Source: a bacterium (GTDB lineage Bacteria > Electryoneota > Electryoneia > Electryoneales > Electryoneaceae). Taken from it: 30,705 nt of DNA. Below, one piece after another: positions 3,929 through 21,341 of the stretch; within the stretch, counting starts at the first letter, position 1; every line of letters starts with the position of its first letter. The DNA lies in contig JAZDLX010000151.1 of the NCBI GenBank assembly GCA_043801585.1, positions 1-30,705 on the forward strand, read 5' to 3'. The notes under the pieces are model-generated. The model searched no databases. It was not told where the DNA came from and saw nothing but the letters and a program-made list of their open reading frames with translations. The translations under genes and the position numbers were made by a program.

Positions 3929-5221
3929 CTATCCTTCCATACTCTTCACCAGGGATGCAAATTTCCCGGCGAAGAGAGTACGTGAACGTTCGCTGCGGCC
4001 CCCCAGAGATGCGCTCTGCTTTTCTCCTTCTCCTTCGACGATCGCGACAATGCGGTGGGGGACGAAATACATCCCGATGATCAGTCCAAGGGAGACGATG
4101 AAAATCCCCGCCCAAACGAACGGTGCGCCGTCGTCACGGCGGACGTTGATGATGGTCGTCCAGCGGCCCTGGTCGTCCACTCGACGGTCGTCGTAGGCGG
4201 ACTGATAAAAACGATACCCTTTGAACCTCATCGGGCTGTTGACTTCGATCGTATCCGACTTGACCTCTTTACCGTCCTCGATCACGGTCAGCATGCAAAT
4301 GTAATCCTGGATGTTCGTTGCGTCGAGACGGCCGCCCTGCATTTTCCGGTCGATCCGGTTGGAAATGCGTTCCGCGGTGATGTTGTTCATCGGCCCCATG
4401 CGTGGACTGTACGTGTCCAGATCGAACGAGCCGTCACGATTCTCTCTCGTGATTCTGCCGATGATCTTGCCGTCCACTTCGACCCATTGACCACCCTGGA
4501 GCGGATAATAGAGGATCTGGAAATCATCGACCCGAGCGTTGAAGCCCCAAAGTTGCTGTTGCTGCGCATCCGCAAGAAATTCACCAGGAAGCCCCGCCAC
4601 ACGGTCATCGTATCCACCTCGGGCGATCATCGCGCCTCCCAGAACGAGCAGGACGAATCCGATGTGGACAAACCAGGCGCCCCATCGTGCCCACTGCATC
4701 TTGGTCGCATCGATGAGCAGTTCGCCCGCTTCACCGGTTTTCGTCTGGACTGTGTAACCGGCCTGACGGAGAATCTGTGGGATTCGTCCGCGCAGGTCCG
4801 TGCCGGCCAGTTTCGCCGATTCCGCCATCTCTTCGGCGTTGCCCCCGGAACGTGGGAAGGCTGGTTTGAAAGCGAGTCTCCAGATCGTGGGAGCCCGGTC
4901 GATGATGCAGACGATCAGGCTCAGCAGAAGCAGTCCCAGAAGCAGGGTATACCACCAGGAGCGGTAGGGGCTGTACATCTGGAAGAACATCAGCAGATCC
5001 GCGCGAAGCCCACCGTATGCCTGTTGGTAGAGGCGAGTGGCGCGCTCGGCGGATCCAGCGGAAATGATGAACTCATTGGCGAACAGGTTGAGGATCGACG
5101 CGGCAGTAATGATCAGGAAAAGGATGATCGCGAAACGCATCGATTTAAGCAGGTTCCACGTCTTATCCAGGAGATTGTCAACAAAGCCGGTCTGTCGCTT
5201 TTCGTTCTTTGTTTCGGCCAT
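3929..5221 (-). CDS. resB: Cytochrome c biogenesis protein CcsB/ResB
   Basis: LKSMRFAIILF, YRSWWY...SLIVCIIDR, GAWFVHIGFVLLVLGG (heme-ligand His), IEVNSPMRFKGYRFYQSAY and a C-terminal TM. Start chosen at MAETKNEK (5221), with GGAG upstream. Confidence 0.93.
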   Translation of the reverse strand: MAETKNEKRQTGFVDNLLDKTWNLLKSMRFAIILFLIITAASILNLFANEFIISAGSAERATRLYQQAYGGLRADLLMFFQMYSPYRSWWYTLLLGLLLLSLIVCIIDRAPTIWRLAFKPAFPRSGGNAEEMAESAKLAGTDLRGRIPQILRQAGYTVQTKTGEAGELLIDATKMQWARWGAWFVHIGFVLLVLGGAMIARGGYDDRVAGLPGEFLADAQQQQLWGFNARVDDFQILYYPLQGGQWVEVDGKIIGRITRENRDGSFDLDTYSPRMGPMNNITAERISNRIDRKMQGGRLDATNIQDYICMLTVIEDGKEVKSDTIEVNSPMRFKGYRFYQSAYDDRRVDDQGRWTTIINVRRDDGAPFVWAGIFIVSLGLIIGMYFVPHRIVAIVEGEGEKQSASLGGRSERSRTLFAGKFASLVKSMEG

Positions 5222-6226
5222 CGGGCCATTTTCTCCGGTCGTTAAGGAAGGCTTCACGTGCCTGACTACAAAGTGCAAACGTTGCGCAAGATACCACAAA
5301 GTGCAGGTTCCGGGCAAGTTTCACGAGCCTCTGTACCTTACGTAATAAACAGCGCAACCCGTTGAATAATCAGATGTTATAAACATGCTGGCAACTTCTT
5401 CATCCGGTCCTGTGCTCAGTTGCACAATCCCGGCACATGCCCGGTTCCGAACTCGCGAGCCCCACAAACGGAATGTCCCTGCCCCGAACGTTTGCCCTGT
5501 ACGGTTCAGATCAGTTGTTTCCATTCGCGTTCCATCGGATCGTGAATCCCGTCCGGACGGCATGAGATCCGACGGAATCATGTGTCGGGTCTCCGCTTTC
5601 CGCCATAGGTGGACAGGCGCCAACGACCCTGCACACCAAACAATAACCTTCACTAAGTGCGTTCAGTCCTCATGCTTTTCCAAACGGGATTCTGCTTGTG
5701 TGGTCATTTCATCCCCGATGCTCCTGAGACATCTCTCCGTCTCCCATCAGGATTCTGGATCGGTATTTCACTGTATACAAACATTTCGATGAATTCTTAT
5801 GCGTAATGGAGCAAACCTGGTTAAGGACTATTCCTGCCTTTTTCATCTCCTCTTTTGTCATGGAACCCGTCCAGCGTCGCTTATGGAAAGCATTTCCGAG
5901 GTTGTAGCAGGATCGTCCGAAAGCTTGAGCGAAACTTGTTTTGCGTCACAGCACACATCGTAAATACAAAAGGCAAATAACCCAAATCGCAGAGATTGCT
6001 CCTTTTTACACGCTCGAGCCCTGTGGATGGAATTTGAGGAATCGTCGCTTTGGGCTTGCGTTCGTAACGAAAGCCTTAAGAAATTGAATTCCGATGATCT
6101 GGGGATAGTGAGATCGCAGACATTCAGCTCGCTGTTGTGGTATACTCCATTGCGGAAAGGGCAAGTATTGGCTTTTCTGCAAAGTGGATTGTATCGCCTC
6201 GAGAGACCATCACGCGTAGATAGGGG

Positions 6227-6342: not shown

Positions 6343-6810
6343 ATGGGTCAACAGCAACTTTTGCTGATCGTGCTTGGCGTGATTATTGTCGGCATCGCGG
6401 TAGCGGTGGGTATTAACATGTTCTCAAGCTCCGCGGTCGACGCGAATCGTGACGCCGTTACGGCAGATCTCGCGCATCTGGGCAGCAAAGCCCAGCAGTT
6501 CTACAAGAAGCCGACCACCATGGGTGGGGGCGGAGGTGACTTCAATGGCTTCGCGCTCGGTGCGTTGGACTCGGTCAACACGAACGGCAACTATCGTTTG
6601 ACGACATCAGCGACGACGGCTGCCACGCAAGCTGCAAATGCCGCCGCAGCGGTCGCTGTCGGCGCCACCAGCATTTCGTCAACCACCACGACGATGTATA
6701 TCGTAGGCTACGGCTCTGAAAAGGGTCGTGACAACACGAATCTCGTCCAGGCCTATGCTCTGGTGGATCCTTCCGCTGCAACTCCGGTTGTGACGTCAGT
6801 CGTCAACTGA
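6343..6810 (+). CDS. Putative major pilin (non-canonical type IV pilin-like, MGQQQLLL type)
   Basis: Hydrophobic N-terminal helix LLLIVLGVIIVGIAVAVGI, amphipathic continuation, small globular domain, strong SD (GGAGAGG) and its own terminator. First gene of the pil cluster. Confidence 0.8.
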   Translation: MGQQQLLLIVLGVIIVGIAVAVGINMFSSSAVDANRDAVTADLAHLGSKAQQFYKKPTTMGGGGGDFNGFALGALDSVNTNGNYRLTTSATTAATQAANAAAAVAVGATSISSTTTTMYIVGYGSEKGRDNTNLVQAYALVDPSAATPVVTSVVN

Positions 6811-6833
6811 TCGAGATGTAACATGCATTGCGA

Positions 6834-6869
6834 CAGGGGCGGGGCTTGCGGGTCTCGCCCCTGCGTTTT
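6834..6869 (+). terminator. Intrinsic terminator after pilin
   Basis: GC-rich stem CAGGGGCGGGG...TCTCGCCCCTG followed by CGTTTT. Confidence 0.7.
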
Positions 6870-6900
6870 GCTCGGAAAAATGGGAGAGCGATAACGTGTC

Positions 6901-7028
6901 AGAAAAAGAGTGACAGTAACTCTTTTTCCGGTTCGGTTGCCGAGTAGCTTGTTCAATCTGGAAGATTCGGGAATCGAGACTGACACTCCGTGCAGGTAGA
7001 AAAAGAGTTACTGTCACTTATTTCTACC
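6901..7028. repeat. Inverted pair of palindromic REP-like units
   Basis: GAAAAAGAGTGACAGTAACTCTTTTTC (6902-6928) and GGTAGAAAAAGAGTTACTGTCACTTATTTCTACC (6995-7028). Each is a hairpin, and they are reverse complements over 20 bp. Confidence 0.75.
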
Positions 7029-7140
7029 GGAAATTCTCAGACGGTTCAAGAGGCTGTCGCTATTACATTGTCTGAAAACTTCTGGAACTTGTTCGAACGA
7101 CGATGCAACATGGGTTTACACAAAAGGCTCAGGAAACACG

Positions 7141-8463
7141 ATGCCAGATTTTCGTTTTGACGGTATAACTGCGAGCGGCAAGCCGGTTCATGGAATCCTG
7201 CAGGCGGACAAACTGCAGGAAGCGAAGCAGAAGGCCGAGAAACTCGCAGCAGCGAAGAAATTTCAGCTCCAGCACGTGCTGCCTCGGCGAGCCTTTGTCT
7301 ATCGTGCCCAAAAGGGAACGGAAAAACCGGTCAAGGGCGAGCAGAAGGCTTTCACCAAAGAGGAGGTGCAGGGAGCTCTCGAGAGGCTGGGGTACAAGGT
7401 TTTGCGCGTAAGTTCGAAGTTGTTCGAATTGAAACTGGGTGTGCCGCTGGCGGAAGTGGTTACGTTCGTCCGAGTGTCTGCGGACCTGCTGCGTGAAAAG
7501 CTTCCCTTCAATGAAGTTCTGCAGCTGCTTCAGAACGACATCTCCAACACGACCCTGCGCGAGGCGGTCAAGGAAATCATCAACGATCTTCAAGCCGGCA
7601 AGGACAGCGAAGAGGCCTTCGTCCGACAGGAAAAAGCTCTCGGAAAATTCTCCGCCAGGATGTTGGGATTGGCATCGAAATCTGGCAACATGGTGGATAT
7701 CTATGAATCCACCGCTGCCTTCCTCGAGCGCCAGGCGGAATTCAAGAAGAGCATCAAGAGCGCACTTGTGATGCCGTTGTTCACTCTCGCAATTCTGATG
7801 GGGGCGGTCGTCTTTTACGTCGCCTACATCTTCCCGCAGACAGCGGAGCTGTTTGTCAAGATGGGCATCGAACTGCCACCGATGACATCCGCGACGTTGA
7901 AAGCGAGCTATTGGCTGATCGACAACATGGTTTACATCGGAATCTTCTTCGTTGCGCTGGCAGTTGGCCTCACCTGGGCGTTTCGACAGGAGCGGGTCCA
8001 GTTCTACAAAGACAAGTACATGTTCAGCATGCCGGTGATGGGGACACTGATCCACAAGACCACGATCGAAATTTTCTGCCGGGTCTTCTATGCTCTGTAC
8101 AGCGGCGCCGGTGAATCAATTGACGCGATCAAACTGTCCGCCGAGGCCTGCGGCAACAAGTACATGGAGTTTCAGATTAAAACCGTGGCGATCCCGATGA
8201 TGCTTTCACGGGGGAGCGGTCTGGTCGAAGCATTTGAGGCGACAGGTGTCTTTACAAAGACGGCGCTGAATCGTTTCCACAGTGGAGCTGAAACAGGTAC
8301 TGTGAAGAAAACCGCGCTCCAGATCGCGAACTATTACGAGAAAGAGACAGTCTACAAGCTGAAAAATATAGTCGAGTTCATTCAGATTATCGTGGCAATG
8401 ATCATCATGGTGGTGATGACCGGATTGACCATCGTTTCGTCCGAAACGGCGACGATAATGTAA
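7141..8463 (+). CDS. pilC: Type IV pilus inner-membrane platform protein (PilC/GspF family)
   Basis: Two GspF-type cytoplasmic domains (DLQAGKDSEEAF; GSGLVEAFEATGVF...GAETG...IANYYEKE) and three TM segments. AGGA SD. Confidence 0.92.
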   Translation: MPDFRFDGITASGKPVHGILQADKLQEAKQKAEKLAAAKKFQLQHVLPRRAFVYRAQKGTEKPVKGEQKAFTKEEVQGALERLGYKVLRVSSKLFELKLGVPLAEVVTFVRVSADLLREKLPFNEVLQLLQNDISNTTLREAVKEIINDLQAGKDSEEAFVRQEKALGKFSARMLGLASKSGNMVDIYESTAAFLERQAEFKKSIKSALVMPLFTLAILMGAVVFYVAYIFPQTAELFVKMGIELPPMTSATLKASYWLIDNMVYIGIFFVALAVGLTWAFRQERVQFYKDKYMFSMPVMGTLIHKTTIEIFCRVFYALYSGAGESIDAIKLSAEACGNKYMEFQIKTVAIPMMLSRGSGLVEAFEATGVFTKTALNRFHSGAETGTVKKTALQIANYYEKETVYKLKNIVEFIQIIVAMIIMVVMTGLTIVSSETATIM

Positions 8464-8761
8464 ATTGCAGCCGGTGGAAGACTTTGGACATCAGTCCCAG
8501 GTATCATTCAGGGAGTGCGCGGAAAGGTGATGACTCATTTTTCATTCTTTCGGAAACCCCTGTTTGAAGACTTGAGCGACCCTCCGGGAGGGAGCTGGAT
8601 CACCGCTTTGATTCGTTTCAGTGCTCATGTTTTGGTGCTCCGAACGGTCAAATGGAAAAGCTGAAAATAGAGCCGAGAGGGAGTCTGCTGAGGCGTTTGA
8701 TGTATGTGACCCGTACTTTATTATATCAGGGATGAAACCGACTTCAACGGGAAGGCAATTC

Positions 8762-10603
8762 GTGGCGGATAAGGCTGAAAAGGATATTCAAGGGCAAAGC
8801 CCTGGTTCTCAGGTGAAGGACAAACTCGGCCTGAAGTTGATCAGCCAGGGATTCGTCGAAGCTGATGTCATCGAGAAGGCTCTGCGCAAACGCGAAGAAG
8901 AGAACGCTGGAACGGTATCACGCCGCTCGAAACGTTCACTGGCGCAGATCCTCGTTGAAGATTTTAATGTCGATCATGATCTGGTTTTCTCGGCGATGTC
9001 CCAGGTTTACGGTTTCCATGAAGTCCAGATAGGCAGCGAAGACACAAATGAATACCGTATCGAGTTCATGAAGAAAATGTTCGATCCGGTGTCCCCGTCC
9101 ACCCGCGAGTACATGATCCAGAAAAAGATCCTCGCCTATCGCTATGACCCGGACCGACCTTACCGCCTGATCCTGATCGCCGCTGATCCGACTGACCGGA
9201 TGATTCCGGCGATTGCACGCTCGATGAATGTGCAGTCCTATGACATCTGCTACGTCAAATACTCCGATATGGAAATGTTGATGGAGAAGGTCTTCCCGCC
9301 CGAGAACAAATTCCTGAAAGATCTGGAAGAGGGCGAAATCAGCGTCGAGGCGGTGGAGGATGAAGAGGAGGGATTTGACGAAGCGCTCATCGAGGCGGAA
9401 ATCAACAAGAGCATGCTGGTCAATCTCGTTGAGGGCATGCTCATCGAAGCGGTACGCATGGGCGCCAGTGATATTCACGTAGTTCCTGTGAATGCGACGA
9501 CCACGGATGTCACGTTTCGCATCGACGGCATGCTGCGCCCATGGCACACCCAGGAGGGCATCCGGCCGGAAGCAATCAGCGCGGTGATCAAGGACCGCAG
9601 CAAGAACATCGACCGGTTCGAGCGGGAGATGAGCCAGGATGGTTTCATTCAGCGAAAAATCGACGGTCACCATATCCGCTACCGTGTCTCCGTTATCCCC
9701 ATCGTCGGGCGTGAATTCCAATACAAGTTTGAATCGATCGTCATTCGAATCCTCGACGACCGCAAGGTCATCACCGATCTTGACAAACTCGGTCTGCAGG
9801 GTGGTGCACGCCAGGCGTTCCTGAAGGCAATCCATCAGCCGCAGGGGATGATTATCGTCACCGGTCCCACGGGATCCGGCAAATCCACGACATTGATCGC
9901 GGCGCTGAGCTACGTTGTCAATCCCGAGATCAATGTGCTCACTGTCGAAGACCCCGTCGAATACATTATCCCCAACGTGCGCCAATTGAAAATCAGCCAC
10001 AAGATGGCGTTCGAGCAGGCGTTGCGCGGTATCCTTCGTCACGACCCCGACGTGGTGATGCTCGGCGAGATTCGCGACAAAGAGACGGGCGAAACCGCGA
10101 TCAAGATGGCGAATACCGGCCACCTGACCTTCTCGACTCTCCATACGAACGACGCCCCTTCCGCGGTCAGCCGTCTCTTCAAAATGGGCATCGAGACCTT
10201 CCTCATTGCCTATGCGATCAACATCATTATTGCCCAGCGGCTGGTCCGTACGCTGTGCAAAGAGTGCAAAATACCGATCGACGAAGAAGATAAATCGATT
10301 GGCCTGCAGTTGGGCTTCACACAGGAAGAGCTGGACACCATCCCGATTTTCAAGCCCAATCATGAGGGATGCGACAAGTGTCACGGAGGGTACAAGGGTC
10401 GCGCGGGAATCCACGAGGCGCTTTATTTCACCAAAGAAATTCGCAAACTGATCTTTGAAGCGAAATCGGATATTAATGAAGATGCGATTCGCCAGAAAGC
10501 CATTGAACAGGGGATGCTCCCCCTGCAGGCCGCGGCGAGGGAAAGGGTGAAGGAAGGGATCACTTCCTTTGAAGAAGTCGCCCGTGTAACCTCGGAAGAT
10601 TGA
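8762..10603 (+). CDS. pilB: Type IV pilus assembly ATPase (PilB/GspE)
   Basis: ASDIH, Walker A GPTGSGKST, TVEDPVE, LRHDPDVVMLGEIRD, GHLTFSTLHTN, and the CKEC...CDKC zinc site. GTG 8762 with GGAAGG SD is preferred over the ORF-track start at 8621. Confidence 0.95.
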   Translation: MADKAEKDIQGQSPGSQVKDKLGLKLISQGFVEADVIEKALRKREEENAGTVSRRSKRSLAQILVEDFNVDHDLVFSAMSQVYGFHEVQIGSEDTNEYRIEFMKKMFDPVSPSTREYMIQKKILAYRYDPDRPYRLILIAADPTDRMIPAIARSMNVQSYDICYVKYSDMEMLMEKVFPPENKFLKDLEEGEISVEAVEDEEEGFDEALIEAEINKSMLVNLVEGMLIEAVRMGASDIHVVPVNATTTDVTFRIDGMLRPWHTQEGIRPEAISAVIKDRSKNIDRFEREMSQDGFIQRKIDGHHIRYRVSVIPIVGREFQYKFESIVIRILDDRKVITDLDKLGLQGGARQAFLKAIHQPQGMIIVTGPTGSGKSTTLIAALSYVVNPEINVLTVEDPVEYIIPNVRQLKISHKMAFEQALRGILRHDPDVVMLGEIRDKETGETAIKMANTGHLTFSTLHTNDAPSAVSRLFKMGIETFLIAYAINIIIAQRLVRTLCKECKIPIDEEDKSIGLQLGFTQEELDTIPIFKPNHEGCDKCHGGYKGRAGIHEALYFTKEIRKLIFEAKSDINEDAIRQKAIEQGMLPLQAAARERVKEGITSFEEVARVTSED

Positions 10604-10715
10604 TCATTTTACAGGCCGGTGCGCGCGGAGCAGGACTCAGGTTAGCCGCAGCAACGGTTTTTTTACGTCGTGCAGGTAAGCAGAGAGCGACTTTGTGTCG
10701 CTCCGGGAGATATTG

Positions 10716-11252
10716 ATGAACACTGGGCAAATGCTTCTTACGCTGGGTGCGTTGATGCTGATCTCCCTGGTAATCCTCAATTTCAACCGGAACCTTGCGG
10801 ACATCGATGATTCTCTGAATTACGACCGGTTCAGGCTCGAAGCGCTCTCCCTACTCACCTCTCACATCGAAGAAGTTTCCGAATACTTCTTCGACGAAGT
10901 CTCGACCGACACCTCGACAGAAAAAAGCCTGAATAATTTTACTACACCCAATTCCCTTGGCTATGATGCCGATGATGGCGGGGTCGTGGACGACATCGAT
11001 GATTTTAACGGCCAGGTGATCCCGGACACAGGCAGAAGCGGCGCAATTTACAATCTTCAGTACACGGTCCAGTACGTCAAGGTCGTTTCAAATCAGATAC
11101 AGACATCGGCAACTCGTGAATACAACAAACGGGTGACTATCAAGATCTGGGACGCATTCGATCCACCTTTGATCGGCCGCATGGTCAACGGGGTTGTCGT
11201 CAACGACACGCTGCAACTTTCGACTGTGATCAGCTACTGGTTCTTCAACTAA
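10716..11252 (+). CDS. Minor pilin-like protein (PilV-like position)
   Basis: MNTGQMLLTLGALMLISLVILNF N-terminal TM, DDIDDFNG motif, KRVTIKIW C-terminal strand; GGGAG SD before ATG 10716. Confidence 0.7.
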   Translation: MNTGQMLLTLGALMLISLVILNFNRNLADIDDSLNYDRFRLEALSLLTSHIEEVSEYFFDEVSTDTSTEKSLNNFTTPNSLGYDADDGGVVDDIDDFNGQVIPDTGRSGAIYNLQYTVQYVKVVSNQIQTSATREYNKRVTIKIWDAFDPPLIGRMVNGVVVNDTLQLSTVISYWFFN

Positions 11253-11259
11253 GGAATCA

Positions 11260-11928
11260 ATGCAAAGCCTCATCGACATAATGGGCGCCATGTTCATCGG
11301 CGGAATTCTCATCCTGGTGGCGATGACCGCTCTGGATAGTGGACTCCAGGCATTTGTCAACAACAACGCGGATGCCATCGTCCAGAACGAACTGGCCGAC
11401 CTCTCTCGCACCATGCAGTTCGATCTTAGAAAAATGGGGTATAGCATTCCGGAAGCTCAGAGCACTTCCATTTTGCAGATCGCTCTGACCAACAGGCTGA
11501 AATTCCTCACCAACCTGAATCTTTCCGAACCTTACAACGGGACCGGCGGGATCGACTCGACCCCGGATACGATTGAGTACCGGGTCACTCCCTTTCAGAC
11601 CTACAACTTCATCGATACATCCATTGTCCTCTATGGACTCTATCGGACCGTGAAAGTCGTGGGCCATGCGACGGAAACCCTCCAGGTGGGAACAATTACC
11701 AATACAGACGTTTTTCGGTATCTCGATCAGGCGGGGAATCCTGTGGTGTACATCCCTGCAACGAAGATGGTCGAGGTAACGTTCGTTTCACTCAATCCGG
11801 AAATCTACCTGAACAGAGAAGTCCTGCTTGCCAGCAGCCCGCAGGAACGGATGACGGAACTGCGGAAACTGGTGCGTGAAAGTTTCTGGCGCCAGACTCG
11901 AGTCGTCTCGAAGAACCTTCGCAGGTAG
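11260..11928 (+). CDS. Minor pilin-like protein (PilW-like)
   Basis: MQSLIDIMGAMFIGGILILVAM N-terminal helix; MQFDLRKMGY resembles the PilW/GspJ 'DLRxAG' segment; FRYLDQAGN near the C-terminus. Confidence 0.7.
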   Translation: MQSLIDIMGAMFIGGILILVAMTALDSGLQAFVNNNADAIVQNELADLSRTMQFDLRKMGYSIPEAQSTSILQIALTNRLKFLTNLNLSEPYNGTGGIDSTPDTIEYRVTPFQTYNFIDTSIVLYGLYRTVKVVGHATETLQVGTITNTDVFRYLDQAGNPVVYIPATKMVEVTFVSLNPEIYLNREVLLASSPQERMTELRKLVRESFWRQTRVVSKNLRR

Positions 11929-11941
11929 CGGGAGGTAATCC

Positions 11942-13210
11942 ATGTTCGGCAAGGGCGCTTTGATTTATGTGGCCGGTTTTTCACTGGTATTTGCCATTTA
12001 CACGGCCCGTCTCTCTGACCTGACCACACGTGTTTCCGATAATTTCAACAAGTATTTCGTCGAGAACTTGGTCCACGAGGCGGCACAAACAGCGATGAAC
12101 TTTGCGGTCAACAAAGTCTGGGATACCGAGGCAACTTCAGATTCATTCTATATTTACGATAGCGCTTGCACGACCTATGTAAGCATCAGCGAACCCAATC
12201 TGGACACCATTCTTGTTCGCGTGAACACTCGCAGCAGGGTTTTCGATCCCGAATACTACGTCTCACAGGGCAAGACGATGCCCGTTGAGGATTCGATTTT
12301 CGCGTATTTCAGCTATAACATCCCCGCGTCACGTTATTTCTGGTTTACCAACACCGAAAATGGCGTGTACTGGATCAGTGGGGACACCGTGTGGGGGCCG
12401 ATTCACAGCAATGGGGTTCTCAAAACCAATGGAAACCCGGTTTTTTATGGAAAAGCCACGGCGAAAACAGGTATCAATCCAAGTCCGACCTCACACGGAA
12501 GTGATGCGCACTTTTACGGTGGGTATGAAATCGGCGTGAATGTCAGTCTGCCCACGGACATGAGCCCGATGGTCTCTGCGGCGCTTATCGCCAACGGGGG
12601 TACTCCCGGCTCTGGCGGGGCAGATTGGAACGCCAAAAGCATGTACAACAAGGAGGTCTGGTTTGAATTTCTGAATAACGGGGATGTCATCCGAACCATT
12701 CCATCCATCGGAGTTCTCGATACAGTTACTCTTTCGGACATCACATCCACAGGAGTGATCCAATGCACTCAGGATGTGCATGTGAAGGGGGTTTTGAACG
12801 GTCAGATTTCAATCCATACCGATCAGACCATTTACATTGAAGATGATATTGTCTATGCGGACAACCCACTGGTCAATCCGAATTCGGACGACATCCTTGG
12901 GCTTGTTGCCGACGAAGATGTGCTGATTGCGGACAACCCGTCAAATTGGAGCGATGTGACGATTCAAGCGACAATCATGGTGCCGGATGGCGCCTTCGGA
13001 GCGGATAATTACAGCACACGCCCGGTTTCCGGCGCAATCTATCTGACCGGGAGCGTCGTTCAGGACAGCCGTGGCCCAGTGGGGACGTTCTCGCATTCGA
13101 TCACACATGGTTTCAGCAAACGATACTATTACGACCCAAGGTTACAAAGTTTTGCGGCTCCGTATTATCCAACCATTCGGGAACTTCACCTCGTCTCCTG
13201 GTGGGAGTGA
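11942..13210 (+). CDS. PilX-like minor pilin with large C-terminal domain
   Basis: MFGKGALIYV start like the PilX 'G-xAL' pattern, AAQTAMNFA helix, GPIHSNG, and GFSKRYYYDPRL tail. GGAGG SD. Confidence 0.65.
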   Translation: MFGKGALIYVAGFSLVFAIYTARLSDLTTRVSDNFNKYFVENLVHEAAQTAMNFAVNKVWDTEATSDSFYIYDSACTTYVSISEPNLDTILVRVNTRSRVFDPEYYVSQGKTMPVEDSIFAYFSYNIPASRYFWFTNTENGVYWISGDTVWGPIHSNGVLKTNGNPVFYGKATAKTGINPSPTSHGSDAHFYGGYEIGVNVSLPTDMSPMVSAALIANGGTPGSGGADWNAKSMYNKEVWFEFLNNGDVIRTIPSIGVLDTVTLSDITSTGVIQCTQDVHVKGVLNGQISIHTDQTIYIEDDIVYADNPLVNPNSDDILGLVADEDVLIADNPSNWSDVTIQATIMVPDGAFGADNYSTRPVSGAIYLTGSVVQDSRGPVGTFSHSITHGFSKRYYYDPRLQSFAAPYYPTIRELHLVSWWE

Positions 13211-13398
13211 TTATTTCTCCCGTGCCACGTTCAACGTCTCTGCCCCCAAGACTCCACGGGAGCTTGCTGACGGCGAATCTGCCGGAAACTCGTCCCTCGT
13301 GAGCATCCTGCAGGCAAAAGATTTATCTTCAATGGGTTGCGTTCGCAGGATCGAACGCAGGCTACAATCAACATTCACCGACGGCTTGAGGGTTTGCC

Positions 13399-14634
13399 AT
13401 GGAACCGAACCAGGTACAACAGGTCAAGCAAAAGGTGCAAAGTCTCGCTGACCGCATCCCACGCACCCTTGCAAGTGTCGAGCGGCAACAATACATCGGC
13501 CGCGAGCTGCTGAAAAAGGTATCGGAACAGGACCGTCTGATAATGCGCGATTTCATCGACGCCGCCCTGCGGCAGATGCGCGTCAAGGATGCCTCCGATA
13601 TCGACATGGGGGGGTATGGATCAGGTGGCAAGATCTGGCTGCGCGTTCAGGGCATCAAGAAACCCGTGGAAGCGTGGGGAACATTTTCGACGGACGAGAC
13701 GGACGTTCTGATCCAGAACCTGATCATGGAGAGTCAGCAGGAACATCTGTATGAGAATAAAAACCTCGACTTCTCCTACATTTTTCGTGAAAATGAGATA
13801 TATGTCCGCAACCGCGCCGACGCCTACTTTGACATGGACAGCCTCGCGTTGAACATGCGCGCGATCAACACGAAAATCCGGTCCTACGAAGGGTTCGGAT
13901 TTCACCCCAACGTGACCAAAAGCCTCGCCCTGGCACACACGAAAGAGGGTTTGATCCTGGTCACGGGAATTACCGGCTCCGGCAAGAGCAGCACCCTCGA
14001 TGCGATCGTTGACATGAACAACCAGACGATCGAAGCGCACATTGTGATCATCGCCAGCCCGGTTGAATTTGTACACTCGTCGAAAAAATGCATCATTCGC
14101 CACCGGGAAGTCGGCAGGGACACACAGAGCTTCAAGCACGGCACCATTGAGGCGTTGCGCCAGGACCCGGATATCATCATCATTGGCGAAATGCGCGATC
14201 CGCAGACCATCCTCGCGGGACTGGAGGTGGCGGACTCCGGCCACAAAGTCCTTAGCACTCTGCATACGTCGTCCGCCATTGAATCCATCGACCGCATCAT
14301 CGGTGAAATCCCTCCTGAAGAGCAGGAACGTGTACGGAACCGTCTGGCCGATGTTCTCCGCTGCGTGATCAGCCAGAAACTGATTCCTTCGCTGGATGGC
14401 AAACGGGTGCTCGCCAAGGAGATCATGATCATGACTCCGAGCATCCGTGCAGCGATCAAGAACAACAACACCAGCGAAATCTACCAGATGATCAACGAGG
14501 GCGTGAAGTTTGGCATGAGCACGATGGAGCAGGATCTCAAGCAGCTTATCATCGATAAGAATATTTCGAAAGAGACGGCAATGAGTTTCGCCAACAACAA
14601 GCGAATGATGCAGCAACTTCTCCAGGGTCTCTAA
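13399..14634 (+). CDS. pilT: Pilus retraction ATPase (PilT/PilU family)
   Basis: GITGSGKSST, HREVGRDTQSF, ALRQDPDIIIIGEMRD, GHKVLSTLHT, SQKLIP and GMSTMEQDL. Confidence 0.92.
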   Translation: MEPNQVQQVKQKVQSLADRIPRTLASVERQQYIGRELLKKVSEQDRLIMRDFIDAALRQMRVKDASDIDMGGYGSGGKIWLRVQGIKKPVEAWGTFSTDETDVLIQNLIMESQQEHLYENKNLDFSYIFRENEIYVRNRADAYFDMDSLALNMRAINTKIRSYEGFGFHPNVTKSLALAHTKEGLILVTGITGSGKSSTLDAIVDMNNQTIEAHIVIIASPVEFVHSSKKCIIRHREVGRDTQSFKHGTIEALRQDPDIIIIGEMRDPQTILAGLEVADSGHKVLSTLHTSSAIESIDRIIGEIPPEEQERVRNRLADVLRCVISQKLIPSLDGKRVLAKEIMIMTPSIRAAIKNNNTSEIYQMINEGVKFGMSTMEQDLKQLIIDKNISKETAMSFANNKRMMQQLLQGL

Positions 14635-14651
14635 GCTGAGCGAGTGAATCG

Positions 14652-16433
14652 ATGGCGAATGCCAGAAAAAACAAAGTCAGAAAGGCCTCGGCGTCCAGCA
14701 AACAGGTTGCCGTTGGGATCAGTGTCGAAGGGCGCTTTATCCAGATGGTCAAGGTGGCGAAAATTCAGAACTCTTACCAGATTCTGGATGCCCGGCTGTT
14801 TGAACTGGATGAGACCTTGGACATGCAGGAAAGTCCGGCGGAAGGTCTTGAGGAATTAGGCGTTGAGGTCGAATCCACAGTTACTGAAGATGCCGCCAAC
14901 AGCGATTCAATCGAGATTTCGGAAGAAACCGGAGAAGTGGATCTCGATCTCGAAGTCCTGACCGCCGATGACCAGGAGGAGGGTGCGAAGGATGACGCCG
15001 GCCGTTTCGTTGAATTGTTGCAGGCAGCCTCCAACAACAACGCTCGAGTCGGTATCAGCCTGACCGAACCTCAGATTTTCTACAACACCTTTGATACGGA
15101 TTGGGGACTGAAAAGTACCAAACTGAAAAAACGTATCAAGGCTGAACTGGTTGAGATCAACGAAGACTATAGCAACCTGCGAGACGATGCATTGAGCATC
15201 ATAAAGGTCAGTGAGGAACGGCCGATGGTGCTCGTACGGGAGGGTCCGGTCTCGCTGATCGAGAAACTCGAGGAGGTCAAGGGATTTGTCACCGGCAGGC
15301 TGCCGTTCATCTCGTTCGTGGAAAGCCTTGAAATATCACTCGCGAATCTGGTCAGGCATCGTTACGATTTGGCGGATGATGCTGTGACAGCGGTTGTCTA
15401 CGTAGGCGAGGAATCAAGCCGGTTCATCTTCATGCGTGGACATCACCTTCACCACATTGCTCCGGTGATCGCGGATGGCGCCAATTCGCCCAACATCGGA
15501 TCCACCCTTTCCAGCAGGTTCCTGTTTGAGCTTGACACTCTCGACCTTCCGGGAGTGGACACAATCGTTCTCGCCGGATTCGCCCACGTCCTCAAAGTCG
15601 AGGAGTCTCTGAAAGATCTGGCGACGGGTGAAATCCATATCGAAGCTGTGAACCTTGATGGTTTTGATCTCACCAAACTGAAACCCAACCGGCTGATGGA
15701 CAACTTGGATCGTCTGCGCCAGCTCAGGGCAAAGGATGACACCCAATCGATGCCGGATTTCGCTTACGATTCGTTTGTACAGGAGGAGACTCCCGCGGGC
15801 GTTCTGGCGGAGGACGCCGAACAGGATCTGACGCTTTACGCCGGTGCGATCGGTGTGGCGCTGCGAATCCTTGACCGCGAACGGGATCTTCATTACGAAG
15901 TCGATCTGACTCCCCTGCGTGTGAAGGAAGGACAAAACCGGTTTGGAATGACCTTTCCTGGCTGGATTCTGCTCGGATTGATTCCCCTCGTAGCCGGGGT
16001 TACCTATCTGGTGGGAGCAAAATACGAACGTCAGGTGGAGCAGTTGAAGGCGGAACTGGGACCGAAGCAGGAACAGATGGTGCTTTTCAACGCCTTGACT
16101 GATTCCATCCGAATGGCTGAAGATAAGCTGATCAAGTATGAACGGTCCTTCTCGGTGATTGATTCCCTCGTCGTCGGGACGAAAACCTGGAGCAATTTCC
16201 TTACCCATGTAGTGAACGTGGCCGACGATGTGGGGGGATTCTGGTTTACGGACATGAACCCTACAGAAGGTGGAAAGAAGGTGAATCTGGTCGGGTATTC
16301 CCTTTACCGAAACCGGATTCCACGTTTTATTGAAGCGCTCGGCGGTGCGACCTTGAAGCGTGTGGAAGTGCAGGAAATTCGTGAAAAGCGCGTTTACAAG
16401 TTCGAGATTGAAGCTCTGGTGCCGAGAAAGTAG
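14652..16433 (+). CDS. PilM-PilN fusion-like alignment protein
   Basis: Actin-fold-like N-part (VAVGISVEG, AVVYVGEESSRF, IVLAGFA, AIGVALR), then VDLTP, a TM helix, a coiled coil and a PilN-like domain (FWFTDM...LVGYS...YKFEIE). Confidence 0.75.
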   Translation: MANARKNKVRKASASSKQVAVGISVEGRFIQMVKVAKIQNSYQILDARLFELDETLDMQESPAEGLEELGVEVESTVTEDAANSDSIEISEETGEVDLDLEVLTADDQEEGAKDDAGRFVELLQAASNNNARVGISLTEPQIFYNTFDTDWGLKSTKLKKRIKAELVEINEDYSNLRDDALSIIKVSEERPMVLVREGPVSLIEKLEEVKGFVTGRLPFISFVESLEISLANLVRHRYDLADDAVTAVVYVGEESSRFIFMRGHHLHHIAPVIADGANSPNIGSTLSSRFLFELDTLDLPGVDTIVLAGFAHVLKVEESLKDLATGEIHIEAVNLDGFDLTKLKPNRLMDNLDRLRQLRAKDDTQSMPDFAYDSFVQEETPAGVLAEDAEQDLTLYAGAIGVALRILDRERDLHYEVDLTPLRVKEGQNRFGMTFPGWILLGLIPLVAGVTYLVGAKYERQVEQLKAELGPKQEQMVLFNALTDSIRMAEDKLIKYERSFSVIDSLVVGTKTWSNFLTHVVNVADDVGGFWFTDMNPTEGGKKVNLVGYSLYRNRIPRFIEALGGATLKRVEVQEIREKRVYKFEIEALVPRK

Positions 16434-16442
16434 GGGACAGCG

Positions 16443-17336
16443 ATGTCGTTTAAACTGCGAAATACGCTGATTCTATTGTTCACGGCGATGGTGGTCATCG
16501 CCATCACGGTATGGCGTCTGCTGTTTTTCTTCCCGGACAAGATCGAAAGTCTCCGCAGTCAATTGAAACAGGTTGAAGAATCGGTCGTCCAGATCCCCGG
16601 CCTCAAGGCGTCTTTGCAAAAAACGCGCGAATTGATTTACACCCGTGAGGAAGTACTCTCATCGTTGGATAAAACCGTGGAAGTGGACGTCACGATGGCT
16701 GATGCGTTCGCCTATCTCGATCAGATTCAGGATCGTTACGGAGCGATTAATTTTACTCTTACTTACAACGGGCAGAAGGAAAGCAAAGGGTTCGGTTCAC
16801 GCAGTTTTACTCTTTCCGGAGAGAGTGTATATGGCACGATCTTCAGCCTCGTCTGGGCGCTTGAACGGGGACCGAACCTGTTCGTGATTGATGGGCTCAA
16901 CATGCGGGGTGTGGAGGCATCACCGCAGCAGGTCGATGGCGCTTCGCTGGTCATCCCGTTTGAAATGAAAGTGCAGGCGTTGTACGCGAACGTGACGGGT
17001 TTGCCGCCGATCAAACGTACCCTCGCGGATGTCAGGGTTCCTCGGCGTCGCAACCTGTTTTACCCTCTCATTTCAAAGAACCTGCCACCCAACACGCGTG
17101 GTCTGGTCGAGGTTGAACGGGCGGAATTGCGCGCTATTCTTCCCAATCGGGCAATTGTTGCGGACCACACCGGAAAAGTTCGTATCCTCTCGGAAGGGGA
17201 TGAAGTGTACCTTGGATATCTGACAAAAGTCGATCTGGCGGACAATTTTGCTGAGTTTACGTTGAATAAAGGTGGCATCGTGGAACGCTTCCGGCTGAAA
17301 CTGCTGTTTACGTCGGAGGAAGGGGAGTCGAGATGA
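16443..17336 (+). CDS. PilO-like protein with PilP-like C-terminal domain
   Basis: N-terminal TM, coiled coil, PilO-like SGESVYGTIFSLVWALE, then RRNLF and ELRAIL...AIVADHTGKVRILSEGDEVYLGYLTKV (PilP-like). Position between pilMN and the secretin. Confidence 0.7.
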   Translation: MSFKLRNTLILLFTAMVVIAITVWRLLFFFPDKIESLRSQLKQVEESVVQIPGLKASLQKTRELIYTREEVLSSLDKTVEVDVTMADAFAYLDQIQDRYGAINFTLTYNGQKESKGFGSRSFTLSGESVYGTIFSLVWALERGPNLFVIDGLNMRGVEASPQQVDGASLVIPFEMKVQALYANVTGLPPIKRTLADVRVPRRRNLFYPLISKNLPPNTRGLVEVERAELRAILPNRAIVADHTGKVRILSEGDEVYLGYLTKVDLADNFAEFTLNKGGIVERFRLKLLFTSEEGESR

Positions 17337-18598
17337 ACCGAGTGTATCAATTCGTTCTGGGGACATTGCTCGCGATGTTGCTTGCCGGTGTAGCGTGGGC
17401 GCAGCTCGGTGGTCCTCGCGAATTGCGCCGGATCAACGCCCAGCCGGACGAAATGATCTCCATGACCCGGTCGATGCCCTTTAACCAGGCTATGATGATC
17501 TTCAGCGACCTGTCGAAACGGAAACTCAACAAGATCATCATCGATCCGAAATCACGCACGATCCCGATTGGGGTCAATATCGAAAACATGCATTGGCTGG
17601 ACGCGTTGGACTTGATCCTGAGGCAGAACGATCTATGGTACCAGGAATTCCCCGATCACATTCTGCTTGTCGATCGTGGAGGTGCCGGCCTTACCAAGGA
17701 AGAGCTTGACAGCAAGACCATGTATGAGGCGAGAGAAGTCCGGATCTCCGCGATCTTCTTTGAAGCCGACCTGACCAAGCTTCGCTCCCTGGGATCAACC
17801 TGGTCTTTCCTCAAACCCGATTCCAGTGTCTCTATCACGATGAGCGCCGCGGAAGCCGGGAAAGGTGTTCTCACGTTTGAAGGAAAGAGTCTGAAGGACT
17901 TCGGCAGCATTGCCGCGACGTTTCGCGCTCTCGAAAGCAAGAATGTGGGCGAGGTGATCGCCAGTCCCCAGGTCACGGTGCGCAGCGGTAGTGAAGGCCG
18001 AATCCAGATCGGATCCGATTTTTCGGTAAATTCCACCGATTTTTCCGGGAACACAGTCACCCAGTTCTACAGCGCCGGATCGATCATCAAAGTGACGCCT
18101 GAGGTGTTGACCATCGACACCACGACCTTCATTCATCTTGACCTTGATGTTCAGAAAAGCCAGGCGGGAAGCAGCGACCTCGGAGTTGAGATCAAGAAAA
18201 CGTCCGCCTCGACAAATGTGCTGCTCCTCGATGGCGAGGAGACTCTGATCGGCGGCCTTTATTCAAACGAGGAAAGCGTGAGTCGGTCGGGAGTGCCAAT
18301 CCTGAAAGATCTCCCCTGGTGGGTGCTCGGCCTCCGTTATATCTTCGGTTATGAATCACGGTCGGTGACAAGAAAGGAATTGATGATCCTCGTCCAGGCG
18401 GAACTGTTGCCGACACTCGAGCAACGGCTGCGCGACCGTATTGCCAGGAATAACGCTCCCGTTCCAGTTCTGAAAAACGCCCGAGAAGATTTTGAACGGG
18501 ATATTACGAGATATCAGAGACAGAGCGACCTGTTTAACCGTTCCCAGATTCAAAAACAGGAAGAGGCGGCCGAGGATTCCCTGAAAGCAAAAGAGTGA
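17333..18598 (+). CDS. pilQ: Secretin (PilQ/GspD family), short form
   Basis: Signal peptide, WLDALDLILRQNDL N0/STN-like segment, ASPQVTVRSGSEGRIQIG, LLDGEETLIGGL, SGVPILKDLP...LRYIF and RKELMILV. Confidence 0.92.
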   Translation: MNRVYQFVLGTLLAMLLAGVAWAQLGGPRELRRINAQPDEMISMTRSMPFNQAMMIFSDLSKRKLNKIIIDPKSRTIPIGVNIENMHWLDALDLILRQNDLWYQEFPDHILLVDRGGAGLTKEELDSKTMYEAREVRISAIFFEADLTKLRSLGSTWSFLKPDSSVSITMSAAEAGKGVLTFEGKSLKDFGSIAATFRALESKNVGEVIASPQVTVRSGSEGRIQIGSDFSVNSTDFSGNTVTQFYSAGSIIKVTPEVLTIDTTTFIHLDLDVQKSQAGSSDLGVEIKKTSASTNVLLLDGEETLIGGLYSNEESVSRSGVPILKDLPWWVLGLRYIFGYESRSVTRKELMILVQAELLPTLEQRLRDRIARNNAPVPVLKNAREDFERDITRYQRQSDLFNRSQIQKQEEAAEDSLKAKE

Positions 18599-18620: not shown

Positions 18621-18650
18621 AGAGGGCTACTCCATTTGAGTAGCCCTCTT
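18621..18650. terminator. Terminator hairpin between convergent pilQ and KamA-family gene
   Basis: Perfect 12-bp stem AGAGGGCTACTC-CATTT-GAGTAGCCCTCT. Confidence 0.8.
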
Positions 18651-18727: not shown

Positions 18728-19930
18728 TCAGTTTTCCCGCGAATTCTGCTTCGTGTGGTGAAAGGGGCGGTCGAGGCGCATCGGGATCCTTGTCATCAAC
18801 GTCCGTGTCGGGTCGTGCCGATCACGATGGCTTGGATGGGGATGGACTTCCTGGAGTTCATCAAACCAGACAGCCAGATCGTTTCGTTGACAGATCAGAT
18901 GCCGGCCGTGATTTATGGGGTGTGCCGCGCGATGGTAACGAAGGTGAATGAAGTCATGATCGACACCGGTGACCTCCAGTTTTCCCGTGTGATGGCTTAG
19001 CACCAACCGCACTGTACTCGCCAATCCCGGCAGGCTATGTATCGCCTCCATCAGAATCCGCCACACCTCGACAATCGGGAGGGAAAATGATTGGTTTCCA
19101 CGGGTCGGACGGTTGATGAATAGGTAATAGGGATGCACACCTGACGCCATCAGATTCATGAAGAGTTCGTGAAGAACAGTGCCATTGTCGTTCACCCCCC
19201 GAATGATCGGACACTGGTTCATGATCTCACATCCGGTTTCCTTGATTTGTCGGATCGCTCTCCTGGCTTTGGTCGTCAATTCGCGGGGATGGCTGAAATG
19301 TGCCATGATGTAAATCCGCCGGTCCGGATGTGAATAGTTGCGCAACAGGTCAATGAGAGCAGGATCGTCCAAAATGCGTTGGGGACGGAAGGCGGGAATC
19401 CTGGTTCCGATACGAACCGCCCTGACGTGCTCCATCTCGGAAAGTTCAGCAAGGATTCGTTTCAGTCTGCCGGTAGCGAGGGTTAAGGGATCACCACCGG
19501 TCAGCAGGACGTTCTGAATCTCTCCATGTTCACGGATATAGGCGAGCGCGTCCGTGGGGTCCATGGCGATTTCGTCACTTCGACGCATCGTCAGCCGCTT
19601 TCGGAAACAGTACCGGCAATAGGAATCGCAGGTTTCCGCAACCAGCATCAGCGCGGTGTCGCTGTATTTATGCTGGAGGCCGCGCGCAACGGTGTAGTCC
19701 GCTTCCCGGCTGGCATCCAGATCTCCCTCCTGATTCAACTCGGACATGGTCGGGATGACCAGCTTGCGCAGGGGGTCGTTCGGATCGTTCCAGTCGATCA
19801 GGCTCAGGTAATAGCTGTTCGCTCGAAATGCAAATTTCTCTTCAATGACAGAGAGTTTCCTGACCTCTGCGTCAGTGAGTTGAGGTACGTCCCGGACATG
19901 ACGGTAGGTTCGTATCGGTTGCATGTCCAC
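18728..19930 (-). CDS. KamA-family radical SAM protein (2,3-aminomutase-like)
   Basis: GLQHKYSDTALM, CDSYCRYCFRKR (CxxxCxxC), VLLTGGDPL, RIGTR, HFSHPRE, NQCPIIRGVND, PYYLF and TGKLEV. GGAG SD before GTG 19930. Confidence 0.9.
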   Translation of the reverse strand: MDMQPIRTYRHVRDVPQLTDAEVRKLSVIEEKFAFRANSYYLSLIDWNDPNDPLRKLVIPTMSELNQEGDLDASREADYTVARGLQHKYSDTALMLVAETCDSYCRYCFRKRLTMRRSDEIAMDPTDALAYIREHGEIQNVLLTGGDPLTLATGRLKRILAELSEMEHVRAVRIGTRIPAFRPQRILDDPALIDLLRNYSHPDRRIYIMAHFSHPRELTTKARRAIRQIKETGCEIMNQCPIIRGVNDNGTVLHELFMNLMASGVHPYYLFINRPTRGNQSFSLPIVEVWRILMEAIHSLPGLASTVRLVLSHHTGKLEVTGVDHDFIHLRYHRAAHPINHGRHLICQRNDLAVWFDELQEVHPHPSHRDRHDPTRTLMTRIPMRLDRPFHHTKQNSREN

Positions 19931-20144
19931 GGTGCTTTCTCCAAGGGTGTCAGGTACACGGGATCCTCGACGTGATCGTAACCTGGAGGAAAGCCGGAGG
20001 GGGGGTCCCTTGAAATACTATGGGCACAACGGACGGCAAAATCATCGGACTGTTTGAGAAAGAATAAATGGCTGACCTTCCGTCGAAACCCAGAAGGGGA
20101 CGTCCGGCGTGGAGAACGTTCGCACACGTCGGGCTTATGTAAAT

Positions 20145-20173
20145 AGTATAAGGTTCGACCGGACAAAGTGCAA
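20145..20173 (-). promoter_or_regulatory. Sigma70-type promoter for the KamA-family gene
   Basis: Minus strand TTGCAC-N17-TATACT. Confidence 0.55.
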
Positions 20174-20465
20174 AATGGTTGCGGAGGCAAATAATCTTCC
20201 GCTGAATATATTAATACAGATAATACAAGAAGATACATTGAGTGAAAGAGATGTTTTCGATCAATTTGGCCCTCGTCTGAAACCTTTTATTAAAGGTCCG
20301 GGCCACCCGGCCGGTTCTCCATGCGTCCGGACGGCATTCAGGATTCAACGGAACAATAATCATCACCCGCAGTCTTGCAGCGGGAGAATGGGGTGTACCT
20401 TTAGTCCGGTGATTGACGATGCATGCACGAAGCAGAGGGTCGGTAAAGGGAAGGGTGAATCCTGG

Positions 20466-21341
20466 ATGCACTGTTTATTTGTCAGTGACTTGCACGGACG
20501 GTCCGACCGCTATCGGAGCCTGTTCGCCGCGATCCAAAAGGAACGTCCCGGGATGGTCTTCATTGGTGGTGACCTGTTCAGTCTTCTGCCAATTCGGGAG
20601 GCGGACGCTCATGACACTCCAATGGGCGATCTTGAAGGATTCATCATCCCCTCGCTCCTCACGTTGCGAGAGGAACTCGGCAGCGAGTATCCGCGGGTGT
20701 ACATGATCCTCGGAAATGATGACGGGGCGCTGATCGAACCCGACATCCGCGATGTCGAAGCTCAGGGACTGTGGACCTATGTCCATCGTTGCCGGGTCGA
20801 GGATCCTTCTGGATACACCATTTACGGCTACAACTTCGTCCCCCCGACACCGTTCCAACTGAAAGACTGGGAACGCTACGATGTCAGCCGGTTCGTCGAT
20901 CCCGGTTGTGTCTCCCCCGAGGAGGGGTGGCGAAGCGTTCCCGTCGAACAATATCACATCCGTTACGCAACCATCTCGAAAGACCTGGAAGAGATGTCGG
21001 GGAACAACACACAGGAAAAAGCGATCTGGCTCTTTCACGCGCCGCCTCATGACACTCTGCTCGACCGCGCCGGACTGGATGGCGTCAAGGTGGATCACGC
21101 CCCGGTGGACATTCATGTTGGTTCGATAGCAGTCCGCCGTTTCATCGAAAACCGCCAACCACTGCTCACACTGCACGGCCACGTGCATGAATCGGCGAAA
21201 CTGACTGGAAGCTGGCGGGACAGGATCGGCAAAACGGAGATGTTTACGGGTGGACACGACGGAGGCGAGCTTTCGCTGATCCGTTTCGATCCCGACGATC
21301 TCGCCTCCGCGACACGCGAACTGCTCCCCTGGCGTCCCTGA
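20466..21341 (+). CDS. Metallophosphoesterase (calcineurin-like/Icc-related)
   Basis: FVSDLHG, IGGDL, LGNDD, FHAPP and LHGHVHE motifs. ATG 20466 after GGGAAGGG is preferred over the ORF-track start at 20109. Confidence 0.9.
   Translation: MHCLFVSDLHGRSDRYRSLFAAIQKERPGMVFIGGDLFSLLPIREADAHDTPMGDLEGFIIPSLLTLREELGSEYPRVYMILGNDDGALIEPDIRDVEAQGLWTYVHRCRVEDPSGYTIYGYNFVPPTPFQLKDWERYDVSRFVDPGCVSPEEGWRSVPVEQYHIRYATISKDLEEMSGNNTQEKAIWLFHAPPHDTLLDRAGLDGVKVDHAPVDIHVGSIAVRRFIENRQPLLTLHGHVHESAKLTGSWRDRIGKTEMFTGGHDGGELSLIRFDPDDLASATRELLPWRP

Follow-up and report, generated by a model that had tools for sequence, protein, structure and literature searches.

A ten-gene type IV filament operon

The DNA analysed here, called the window throughout, is a contig of 30,705 nucleotides (JAZDLX010000151.1) from a bacterial genome of the family Electryoneaceae (GCA_043801585.1). 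Positions 6343..18598 carry ten co-oriented, uninterrupted open reading frames (ORFs) on the + strand, in the order pilA-pilC-pilB-three minor pilins-pilT-pilMN-pilO(P)-pilQ; an earlier reading of the letters alone (the sequence-only reading) had placed at these positions a type IV filament cluster whose pilins lack canonical leaders. The same genome, assembled to 92.4% completeness in 225 contigs, holds one each of PilB, PilT, PilC, secretin and pilA, and the machine in the window is the sole one that we found there. We conclude that the operon encodes a conserved system, undescribed in print as far as we found, and that this system is a variant of the type IV filament likely to dispense with prepilin processing.

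The sequence-only reading had described the machine as near complete, and most of it stood. Family scans of the window proteins identified PilC, PilB, PilT and the secretin. The platform protein PilC, of 440 amino acids (aa; 7141..8463), matched PF00482 over two stretches (E 1.7e-28), with NF052606 as its best model. The extension ATPase PilB (8621..10603; PF00437) was taken from the first GTG of its ORF, and its real start may be later; its best model was TIGR02538, at 432.8 bits yet under the cut-off of 675.65. It scored better with PilB than with GspE models, and a FlaI model gave 56 bits versus 433 for PilB. The Walker A and B motifs, the His box and two CxxC motifs of PilB are all intact, as are the ATPase motifs of the retraction ATPase PilT (13399..14634, 411 aa), which at 332.3 bits scored above the TIGR01420 cut-off of 319.1. 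The PilQ-type secretin (17333..18598, 421 aa) matched PF00263 with an E value of 5.3e-30, and TIGR02515 was its best model, below cut-off. Profile searches with 38 homologues each matched PilN and PilO to solved Myxococcus structures (E 1.3e-8 and 8.2e-6, respectively). PilN is part of a PilM-PilN fusion (14652..16433, 593 aa), and PilO (16443..17336, 297 aa) has at its C terminus a possibly PilP-like domain. The PilM and PilP halves stayed unconfirmed: a PilM hidden Markov model (HMM) found no match in the PilMN protein, for which PilM is a language-model lead only (0.91, 160 shared features), and the C-terminal third of the PilO protein had no profile match to PilP. With a PilV/W/X-like set of minor pilins, among which no FimU/GspH-like gene was identified, the features of a type IVa machine found here are PilB, PilC, PilT, PilN, PilO and a secretin.

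Four pilin genes that begin without a leader

The major pilin PilA (6343..6810, 155 aa) begins MGQQQLLL and has its first acidic residue at D33; a strong ribosome-binding site (RBS), AGGAGAGG, precedes its start. Minor pilin 1 (10716..11252, 178 aa; MNTGQMLL) is likely PilV/GspI-like, minor pilin 2 (11260..11928, 222 aa; MQSLIDIM) has a PilW/GspJ fold and a conserved Asp6, and minor pilin 3 (11942..13210, 422 aa; MFGKGAL) is likely a PilX/GspK-like tip pilin. None of the four has a class III signal peptide, as the sequence-only reading had noted, and the proteins begin 1-5 residues ahead of the hydrophobic helix. The Glu5 of major pilins is lacking from PilA, which has Gln at position 5. Standard leaders supplied by upstream starts had been named as a possible way out, and we found none: the starts at 6343, 10716, 11260 and 11942 are preceded by in-frame stops at distances of 10, 12, 10 and 1 codons, and in three of the four genes the upstream in-frame stretch is free of ATG, GTG and TTG. 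In the fourth, that of minor pilin 1, an in-frame GTG at 10695 would lengthen the protein by 7 residues. We favoured the ATG at 10716 because GGGAG lies 5 nt upstream of it and because in 123 of the 150 best homologue representatives the first residue of the protein is the one aligned to profile position 1.

Homologues of the major pilin numbered 4518 at E 0.001. Among the best 120, the motif [MV]GQQQL[LM]L stands at residue 1 in 119 (the remaining one has a 50-residue upstream extension), so the MGQQQLLL start is not a matter of chance. We also fetched named-genome loci, the best 79 of 452 confirmed pilA matches, and scored the starts of 120 of the 122 pilA genes in the fetched loci after dropping 2 truncated genes. 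An in-frame stop lies no more than 7 codons upstream of the start in 85 of these and directly before it in 3, and any upstream start codon is present in only 5/120. The minor pilin genes of relatives follow the same leaderless pattern (27, 19 and 20 genes scored).

The N terminus is the most conserved stretch of PilA (0.37 bits for residues 1-12 versus 1.87 for 25-60), which appears unlike the behaviour of a disposable signal. Among the 120 pilA genes, Gly2 is present in 119, position 5 is Gln in 118 and Glu in 2, and 118 have no acidic residue in positions 1-24; Gly17 (116/120) and Gly23 (101/120) stand where helix breakers are expected, and Pro is absent. In 123 homologues of minor pilin 1, positions 2-4 vary and position 5 is Gln in 113, Glu in 7, and Asp, Asn and His in 1 each. 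Minor pilin 2 has Asp at position 6 in 101/109 homologues.

Many loci (11 noted, and others) carry 2-3 tandem pilA paralogues, one of which often has a TTG or GTG start (16/120 starts) and may be a low-abundance minor pilin; there are up to 7 pilA copies per genome.

The sequence-only reading had made a pilin fold a test of its case, and structure prediction bears the fold out for the two proteins modelled, PilA and minor pilin 2. An AlphaFold2 model of PilA, built from 89 sequences with a predicted local distance difference test (pLDDT) score of 89, has a 54-residue helix (2-55) followed by a beta-sheet. The first 16 rows of a structural search with this model were all pilins or pseudopilins, led by a Shewanella pilin (Z 7.5, root mean square deviation [rmsd] 2.5, 82 aligned) and Thermus PilA4 (Z 7.3, rmsd 3.2, 106 aligned); EpsG scored Z 4.0 only. 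The nearest named language-model clusters, which serve as leads only, were N_methyl pilins (0.85-0.86). The model of minor pilin 2 (pLDDT 88) matched TTHA1219, XcpW, EpsJ and GspJ with Z scores of 11.2, 10.2, 9.9 and 9.5 (rmsd 3.1 over 142 aligned residues for TTHA1219), with unrelated rows at Z 4.3.

Minor pilin 3 is homologous to large leader-bearing pilins in the canonical operon of relatives (E 2.4e-31; hhalign 100%), and minor pilin 1 weakly matched the PilV-like gene of that operon (E 0.002). Minor pilins 1 and 2 are predicted to bind along their alpha-1 helices, with a score of 0.61 against 0.00 for the best of 3 controls. Repeat runs gave 0.62, 0.25 and 0.61, at least 50% of contacts agreed, and partner pLDDT was at least 72; the binding mark is one reached by 116/157 solved and 2/215 mismatched pairs, and similarity to solved GspI-GspJ complexes may account for the predicted binding. 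When pilA, minor pilin 1 and minor pilin 2 were compared with small alignments of relatives' canonical pilins, hhalign gave less than 40% probability and we did not take these matches up.

Peptidase and canonical pilins in the genome and among carriers

No prepilin peptidase was found by family scans of the window proteins, in agreement with the sequence-only reading, and extending the search to the 92.4%-complete genome gave 0 matches to each of PF01478, PF06750 (A24-type peptidase) and PF07963 (N-methyl pilins); 12, 8 and 8 of 14 control genomes, respectively, had matches. PF01478 was detected in four archaeal control genomes, and PF06550, the signal peptide peptidase (SPP)-type family, was found in 0/5 genomes. 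An HMM made from 11 PilD proteins of the phylum gave no accepted match in the genome; its best one (E 0.19, contig C206) was rejected, as the sequence reads as what we take, by recognition, to be a crotonase-type enzyme. A class III regular expression matched nothing in the genome versus 8 pilins in the canonical loci of relatives, so neither this expression nor PF07963 brought up canonical N-methyl pilins elsewhere as the real subunits. A looser expression gave 32 matches, by eye internal membrane segments or non-pilin ORFs.

These searches bear on whether cleavage of the pilins still takes place, either at G2|Q3 in PilA, G4|Q5 in minor pilin 1 and G5|A6 in minor pilin 3 through some unrecognised peptidase family, or further down through signal peptidase I. 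The archaeal-style G|Q cleavage suggested by the sequence-only reading gained no support, since neither an A24-type nor an SPP-type peptidase came up in this genome or in most carriers. Gly does precede Gln in 119/120 pilA genes and is at position 4 in 107/123 minor pilin 1 homologues, 70/120 pilA sequences fit the -3/-1 rule at 32/34, and a passage of PMC4471445 reports that some systems tolerate very short leaders. Against this, no conserved peptidase-like gene lies near the operon, among families present in at least 4 of 82 loci and as judged by eye from N-terminal sequence. Minor pilin 1 lacks G4 in 16/123 homologues and has K/R within positions 2-4 in only 2/123; position 5 of minor pilin 3 is Gly in only 10/20, and minor pilin 2 has no Gly site. 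The signal peptidase I rule fails in 50/120 pilA sequences, and the N terminus that would be removed is the most conserved region. We regard continued cleavage as quite improbable.

Within the phylum, the genome stands apart. Of the phylum's genomes with 90% completeness or more (n = 52), A24 was found in 49 and N-methyl pilins in 50; only this genome and a congener lack both. The pilD of relatives sits in a separate canonical operon together with pilA, pilT, V, W, X, M, N, O, Q, B and C. One family of the phylum (three loci) has longer, weakly scoring PilD proteins of ~340 aa.

The named carriers (n = 50, chosen from the 79 loci, completeness not given) include 33 without PF01478 and 28 without both PF01478 and N-methyl pilins; 16/17 of the A24-bearing ones also have N-methyl pilins. 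A second sample consisted of 161 genomes at least 97% complete (the centre genome apart) from the phylum of Stygiobacter electus. The pilin was found in 66 of them (E 1e-12), and 56 of these 66 carriers lack PF01478. Of the 10 that have it, 9 also carry N-methyl pilins, each of the 9 showing one N-methyl match ~0.6-1.5 kb from an A24 gene. With PF06750, a PilD that had likely been missed came up in G128 and a weak partial match in G176, and all three markers are absent from 54/66 carriers. In the single 6.28-Mb record G069, all ten genes are in order and free of stops and the three markers are absent; the 3.88-Mb record G092 and the isolate G089, the cultured carrier Stygiobacter electus 09-Me, have pilA, C, B, T, O and Q and no markers. 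We give no P value because the genome sets overlap and kin are not independent. In the same sample 19 pilin-less genomes have an A24 match, most without an N_methyl match at E 1e-4, and may hold Tad-type or other peptidase substrates.

Could a peptidase and canonical pilins have been missed in incomplete assemblies, or is the operon a decaying relic? The gaps in this genome's assembly, the likely PilD of G128 that PF01478 overlooked, and the damaged look of the operon in another genome, G085, speak for such an explanation. The 54/66 near-complete carriers and the single-record chromosomes G069 and G092 that are free of the three markers speak against it, as does the retention of gene order over several phyla. 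Moreover, between the two peptidase-less congeners the ratio of nonsynonymous to synonymous substitution rates (dN/dS) is 0.04-0.16 for all ten genes (dS 0.8-1.8), from which we conclude that purifying selection maintains the system. This explanation is already largely refuted, and we give it very little credence.

The order pilA-C-B-(minors)-T-MN-O-Q recurs in Calditrichota, KSB1, Ignavibacteria, Kryptonia, Balneolaceae, Latescibacterota and others, in keeping with the view of the sequence-only reading that this is a divergent, lineage-wide filament subtype. In many loci of the Ignavibacteria type the minor pilins lie elsewhere or are divergent, and a PilT above the family cut-off is present in every complete operon seen. 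Named minor pilin homologues include one from Candidatus Electryonea at 57% identity, and pilA had no match in plasmid or phage collections. The families adjoining the operon in 82 loci are ones that we presume, by recognition, to be a response regulator (21 loci), an aspartyl-tRNA synthetase-like protein (19) and a sensor-like protein (15); beyond these three, no gene family found in at least 4 of the 82 loci is conserved beside it. The response-regulator family and a 421-aa sensor-like family lie downstream of pilQ in several loci (four noted, and others), where they are possible regulators, and are absent from the window. One locus of the Calditrichia has two operons of the leaderless-pilin type in tandem, and one of KSB1 has a three-gene minor pilin cassette in two copies. 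In the single-record chromosome of G085 the operon halves (L049, L114) lie ~440 kb apart, possibly rearranged or decaying; the first 114 residues are missing from the pilT match, which is embedded in an open frame of 1223 aa, and a single stop interrupts pilMN.

Relation to known filaments and the mature N terminus

The cluster shares the pilin fold, PilB, PilT, PilC, PilN/PilO and the secretin with type IVa pili (T4aP) of Pseudomonas, Myxococcus and Thermus and with the canonical operon of its own phylum, and it has a V-W-X-like trio of minor pilins in the same order. Unlike T4aP, it lacks a class III leader, Phe1/Glu5 and PilD, its PilMN and PilO(P) are fused, and the N-terminal helix of its PilA is ~3 residues longer than that of a mature canonical pilin. 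We did not file it as a type IVa member because leader, Glu5 and peptidase all fail. In a quick tree of 67 rows from 37 chosen loci, with 7 outside reference loci, which does not settle placement in the superfamily, PilB (25 rows, SH-like approximate likelihood ratio test 93) and PilT (24 rows, 100) each formed a long-branched clade of their own, apart from the T4aP of the phylum and from the type II secretion system (T2SS).

A single compact operon, a GspJ-like minor pilin and a short secretin recall the T2SS. However, the cluster has a PilT and no GspO, its PilA is nearer to T4a pilins than to GspG, so that a GspG-type major pseudopilin is lacking, and its PilB falls outside the GspE clade. 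The same machine, still peptidase free, might nonetheless form a short periplasmic endopilus that serves secretion or uptake through the secretin in place of a long surface pilus. The 421-aa secretin, the sole one found in the genome, would suit such a role, minor pilin 2 resembles XcpW, EpsJ and GspJ as well as a Thermus pilin, and a passage of Denise et al. (PMC6668835) has a Bacteroidetes secretion system branching with T4aP. But PilT is kept in every complete operon seen, whereas the T2SS arose by loss of PilT according to a passage of PMC10191384; moreover, the top matches of PilA are T4a pilins and PilB scores favour PilB over GspE models. An endopilus is thus an unlikely outcome.

Two further systems were compared. 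Like the mannose-sensitive hemagglutinin (MSHA) pilus, the cluster is a locus without a prepilin peptidase, but the relevant part of PMC6668835 states that MSHA genomes always encode one in another system, from which it is borrowed, whereas most carriers here have none; MSHA also lacks PilT (PMC10191384), which the cluster has. Archaeal type IV pili and archaella resemble it in that Glu5 is often absent from their pilins, which are also not N-methylated, as described in PMC4471445. They keep a cleaved leader and a PibD/FlaK-type peptidase with a FlaI-type ATPase, none of which we found, whereas the cluster has a PilB-type ATPase, PilT and a secretin. The same review notes Nanoarchaeota as the sole phylum with prepilins yet no detected peptidase.

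Taken together, these results suggest a type IVa-like machine that assembles leaderless pilins, likely into a retractile pilus made without a prepilin peptidase, with the start codon likely setting the mature N terminus; we put the probability of this reading at roughly 0.78. Retraction is proposed because PilT is present, and the likely use would be surface attachment and pulling, possibly DNA uptake. ComEC, found in 5/5 genomes tested, is no pointer to competence because it also occurs in 10/14 controls. By analogy with established type IV filament biology, SRP (the signal recognition particle) and Sec would insert the pilins N-in, the polar MGQQQ cap acting as cytoplasmic anchor in the leader's stead. 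Minor pilins 3-1-2 (PilX/V/W-like) would form the tip, PilB and PilC would add PilA subunits, and PilT would retract the pilus through PilQ.

Least certain is the proposal that N-methyl-Phe1 is replaced by Met1, and Glu5 by Gln5. Aligned with canonical pilins, residues 13-60 of PilA match at offset 3 (Gln4 = +1, Leu8 = +5), and Asp6 of minor pilin 2 aligns with Glu5 at offset 1. Because position 5 is conserved in PilA and minor pilin 1, and Asp6 in minor pilin 2, the comparison suggests that the start Met is residue +1 and that Gln5 likely replaces Glu5; the N-terminal helix would be about one turn longer because residues 13-60 align at offset 3. In an alternative register, MGQ would be an uncleaved remnant and Gln4 would be residue +1.

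Passages of PMC4471445 and PMC10191384 describe SRP/Sec insertion of pilins, N-in, and a Glu5 that neutralises the N-terminal amine of its neighbour in the filament core. We propose that this salt bridge is dispensable here because the N terminus is likely uncharged; a blocked N terminus would be a neat solution because the helix has no acid in 118/120 sequences. For PilA we weigh retention of formyl-Met at about 45%, trimming of Met to a free Gly capped by Gln at about 40%, and another modification at 15%. PMC5454389 reports, in the part concerned, that SRP can keep nascent membrane proteins, mostly N-out ones, from being deformylated. Trimming is a near-equal alternative for PilA given Gly2 and the presence of genes for methionine aminopeptidase (MAP) and peptide deformylase, but a residue 2 of the MAP type occurs in only 43/123 homologues of minor pilin 1, which means that Met removal cannot hold for the system in general.

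Several points weigh against our interpretation. The system is described here from its genes and from predicted structures. The register is ambiguous, as PilA 1-12 fits best at offset 0 in a near tie (0.54 vs 0.53 and 0.47). The best Z of PilA, 7.5, lies within the range (<8) that the search tool calls common, so the weight of the fold match is carried by the uniformity of its pilin-only list; Foldseek with the PilA model found no match in the PDB at E 0.001, and a PDB sequence search of PilA gave weak Geobacter pilin matches only (E 0.08-0.2). The same part of PMC5454389 has N-in proteins, as pilins are, possibly deformylated after insertion, and Glu5 mutants of known pilins are described in PMC4471445, where it treats such mutants, as unable to form homopolymers. 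Within the phylum of the window, 19/21 strong carriers do have A24, and our searches would all overlook a peptidase that belongs to an unrelated family. Finally, G085 lacks the markers, but its operon is the split and damaged-looking one, and the genome sets, composed in part of kin, share five genomes.

Reviews describe the class III signal peptide as "invariably" present and processed before assembly, and the peptidase as part of the ancestral core (PMC10191384, PMC4471445, PMC6668835). Our literature search, which covered few subscription journals and no supplements, turned up no account of the pilin family or of a type IV filament that works independently of a peptidase; PMC6668835 may list such loci as "generic" in its system tables, which lay outside the search, and the relevant passages of the Salinibacter and Ignavibacterium album genome papers have no discussion of pili. 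Database names of these pilins are hypothetical, "Tfp pilus assembly protein PilE" and, once, "type IV pilin protein." The 2013 genome paper on Melioribacter roseus states, where it treats pili, that pilT, Q, B and C were found and pilA and pilD "not found" (PMC3534657); we read pilin carriage from two uncultured Melioribacter loci, not from M. roseus itself. A wider proposition, to which we give slightly less than even odds, is that a multi-phylum filament clade without prepilin processing, with formyl-Met for N-methyl-Phe and Gln5 for Glu5, is the "incomplete" pilus of the Ignavibacteria. If true, a natural system free of leader, Glu5 and peptidase would make the purpose of the leader, the role of Glu5 and N-methylation, and the exit of pilins from the membrane directly testable, and surveys based on PilFind or N_methyl models would be overlooking the pilins of whole lineages.

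Two hairpins, each a pattern match only, border genes of the operon. One, terminator-like (6834..6863, +; 13 bp, GC-rich), lies 3' of pilA and would favour pilA over the downstream genes; terminator-like patterns across the region are at chance level (15 vs 14.4), and promoter counts also equal chance. The other (18621..18649, 12 bp) lies between the operon end and a convergent KamA-like gene. The window also encodes a Fic/DOC-family protein (947-1762, +; 271 aa) and, divergent from the operon, a ResB-like cytochrome c biogenesis protein (3929-5317, -), with ~1 kb without a recognised gene between the ResB-like gene and the operon. The convergent block (18728-29138, -) encodes a KamA-family radical SAM protein; two proteins with a PPDK_N domain, one of 1067 aa whose C-terminal domain is nucleotidyltransferase-like and one of 586 aa; a DUF4032/Kdo-kinase protein; and a glutamate dehydrogenase.

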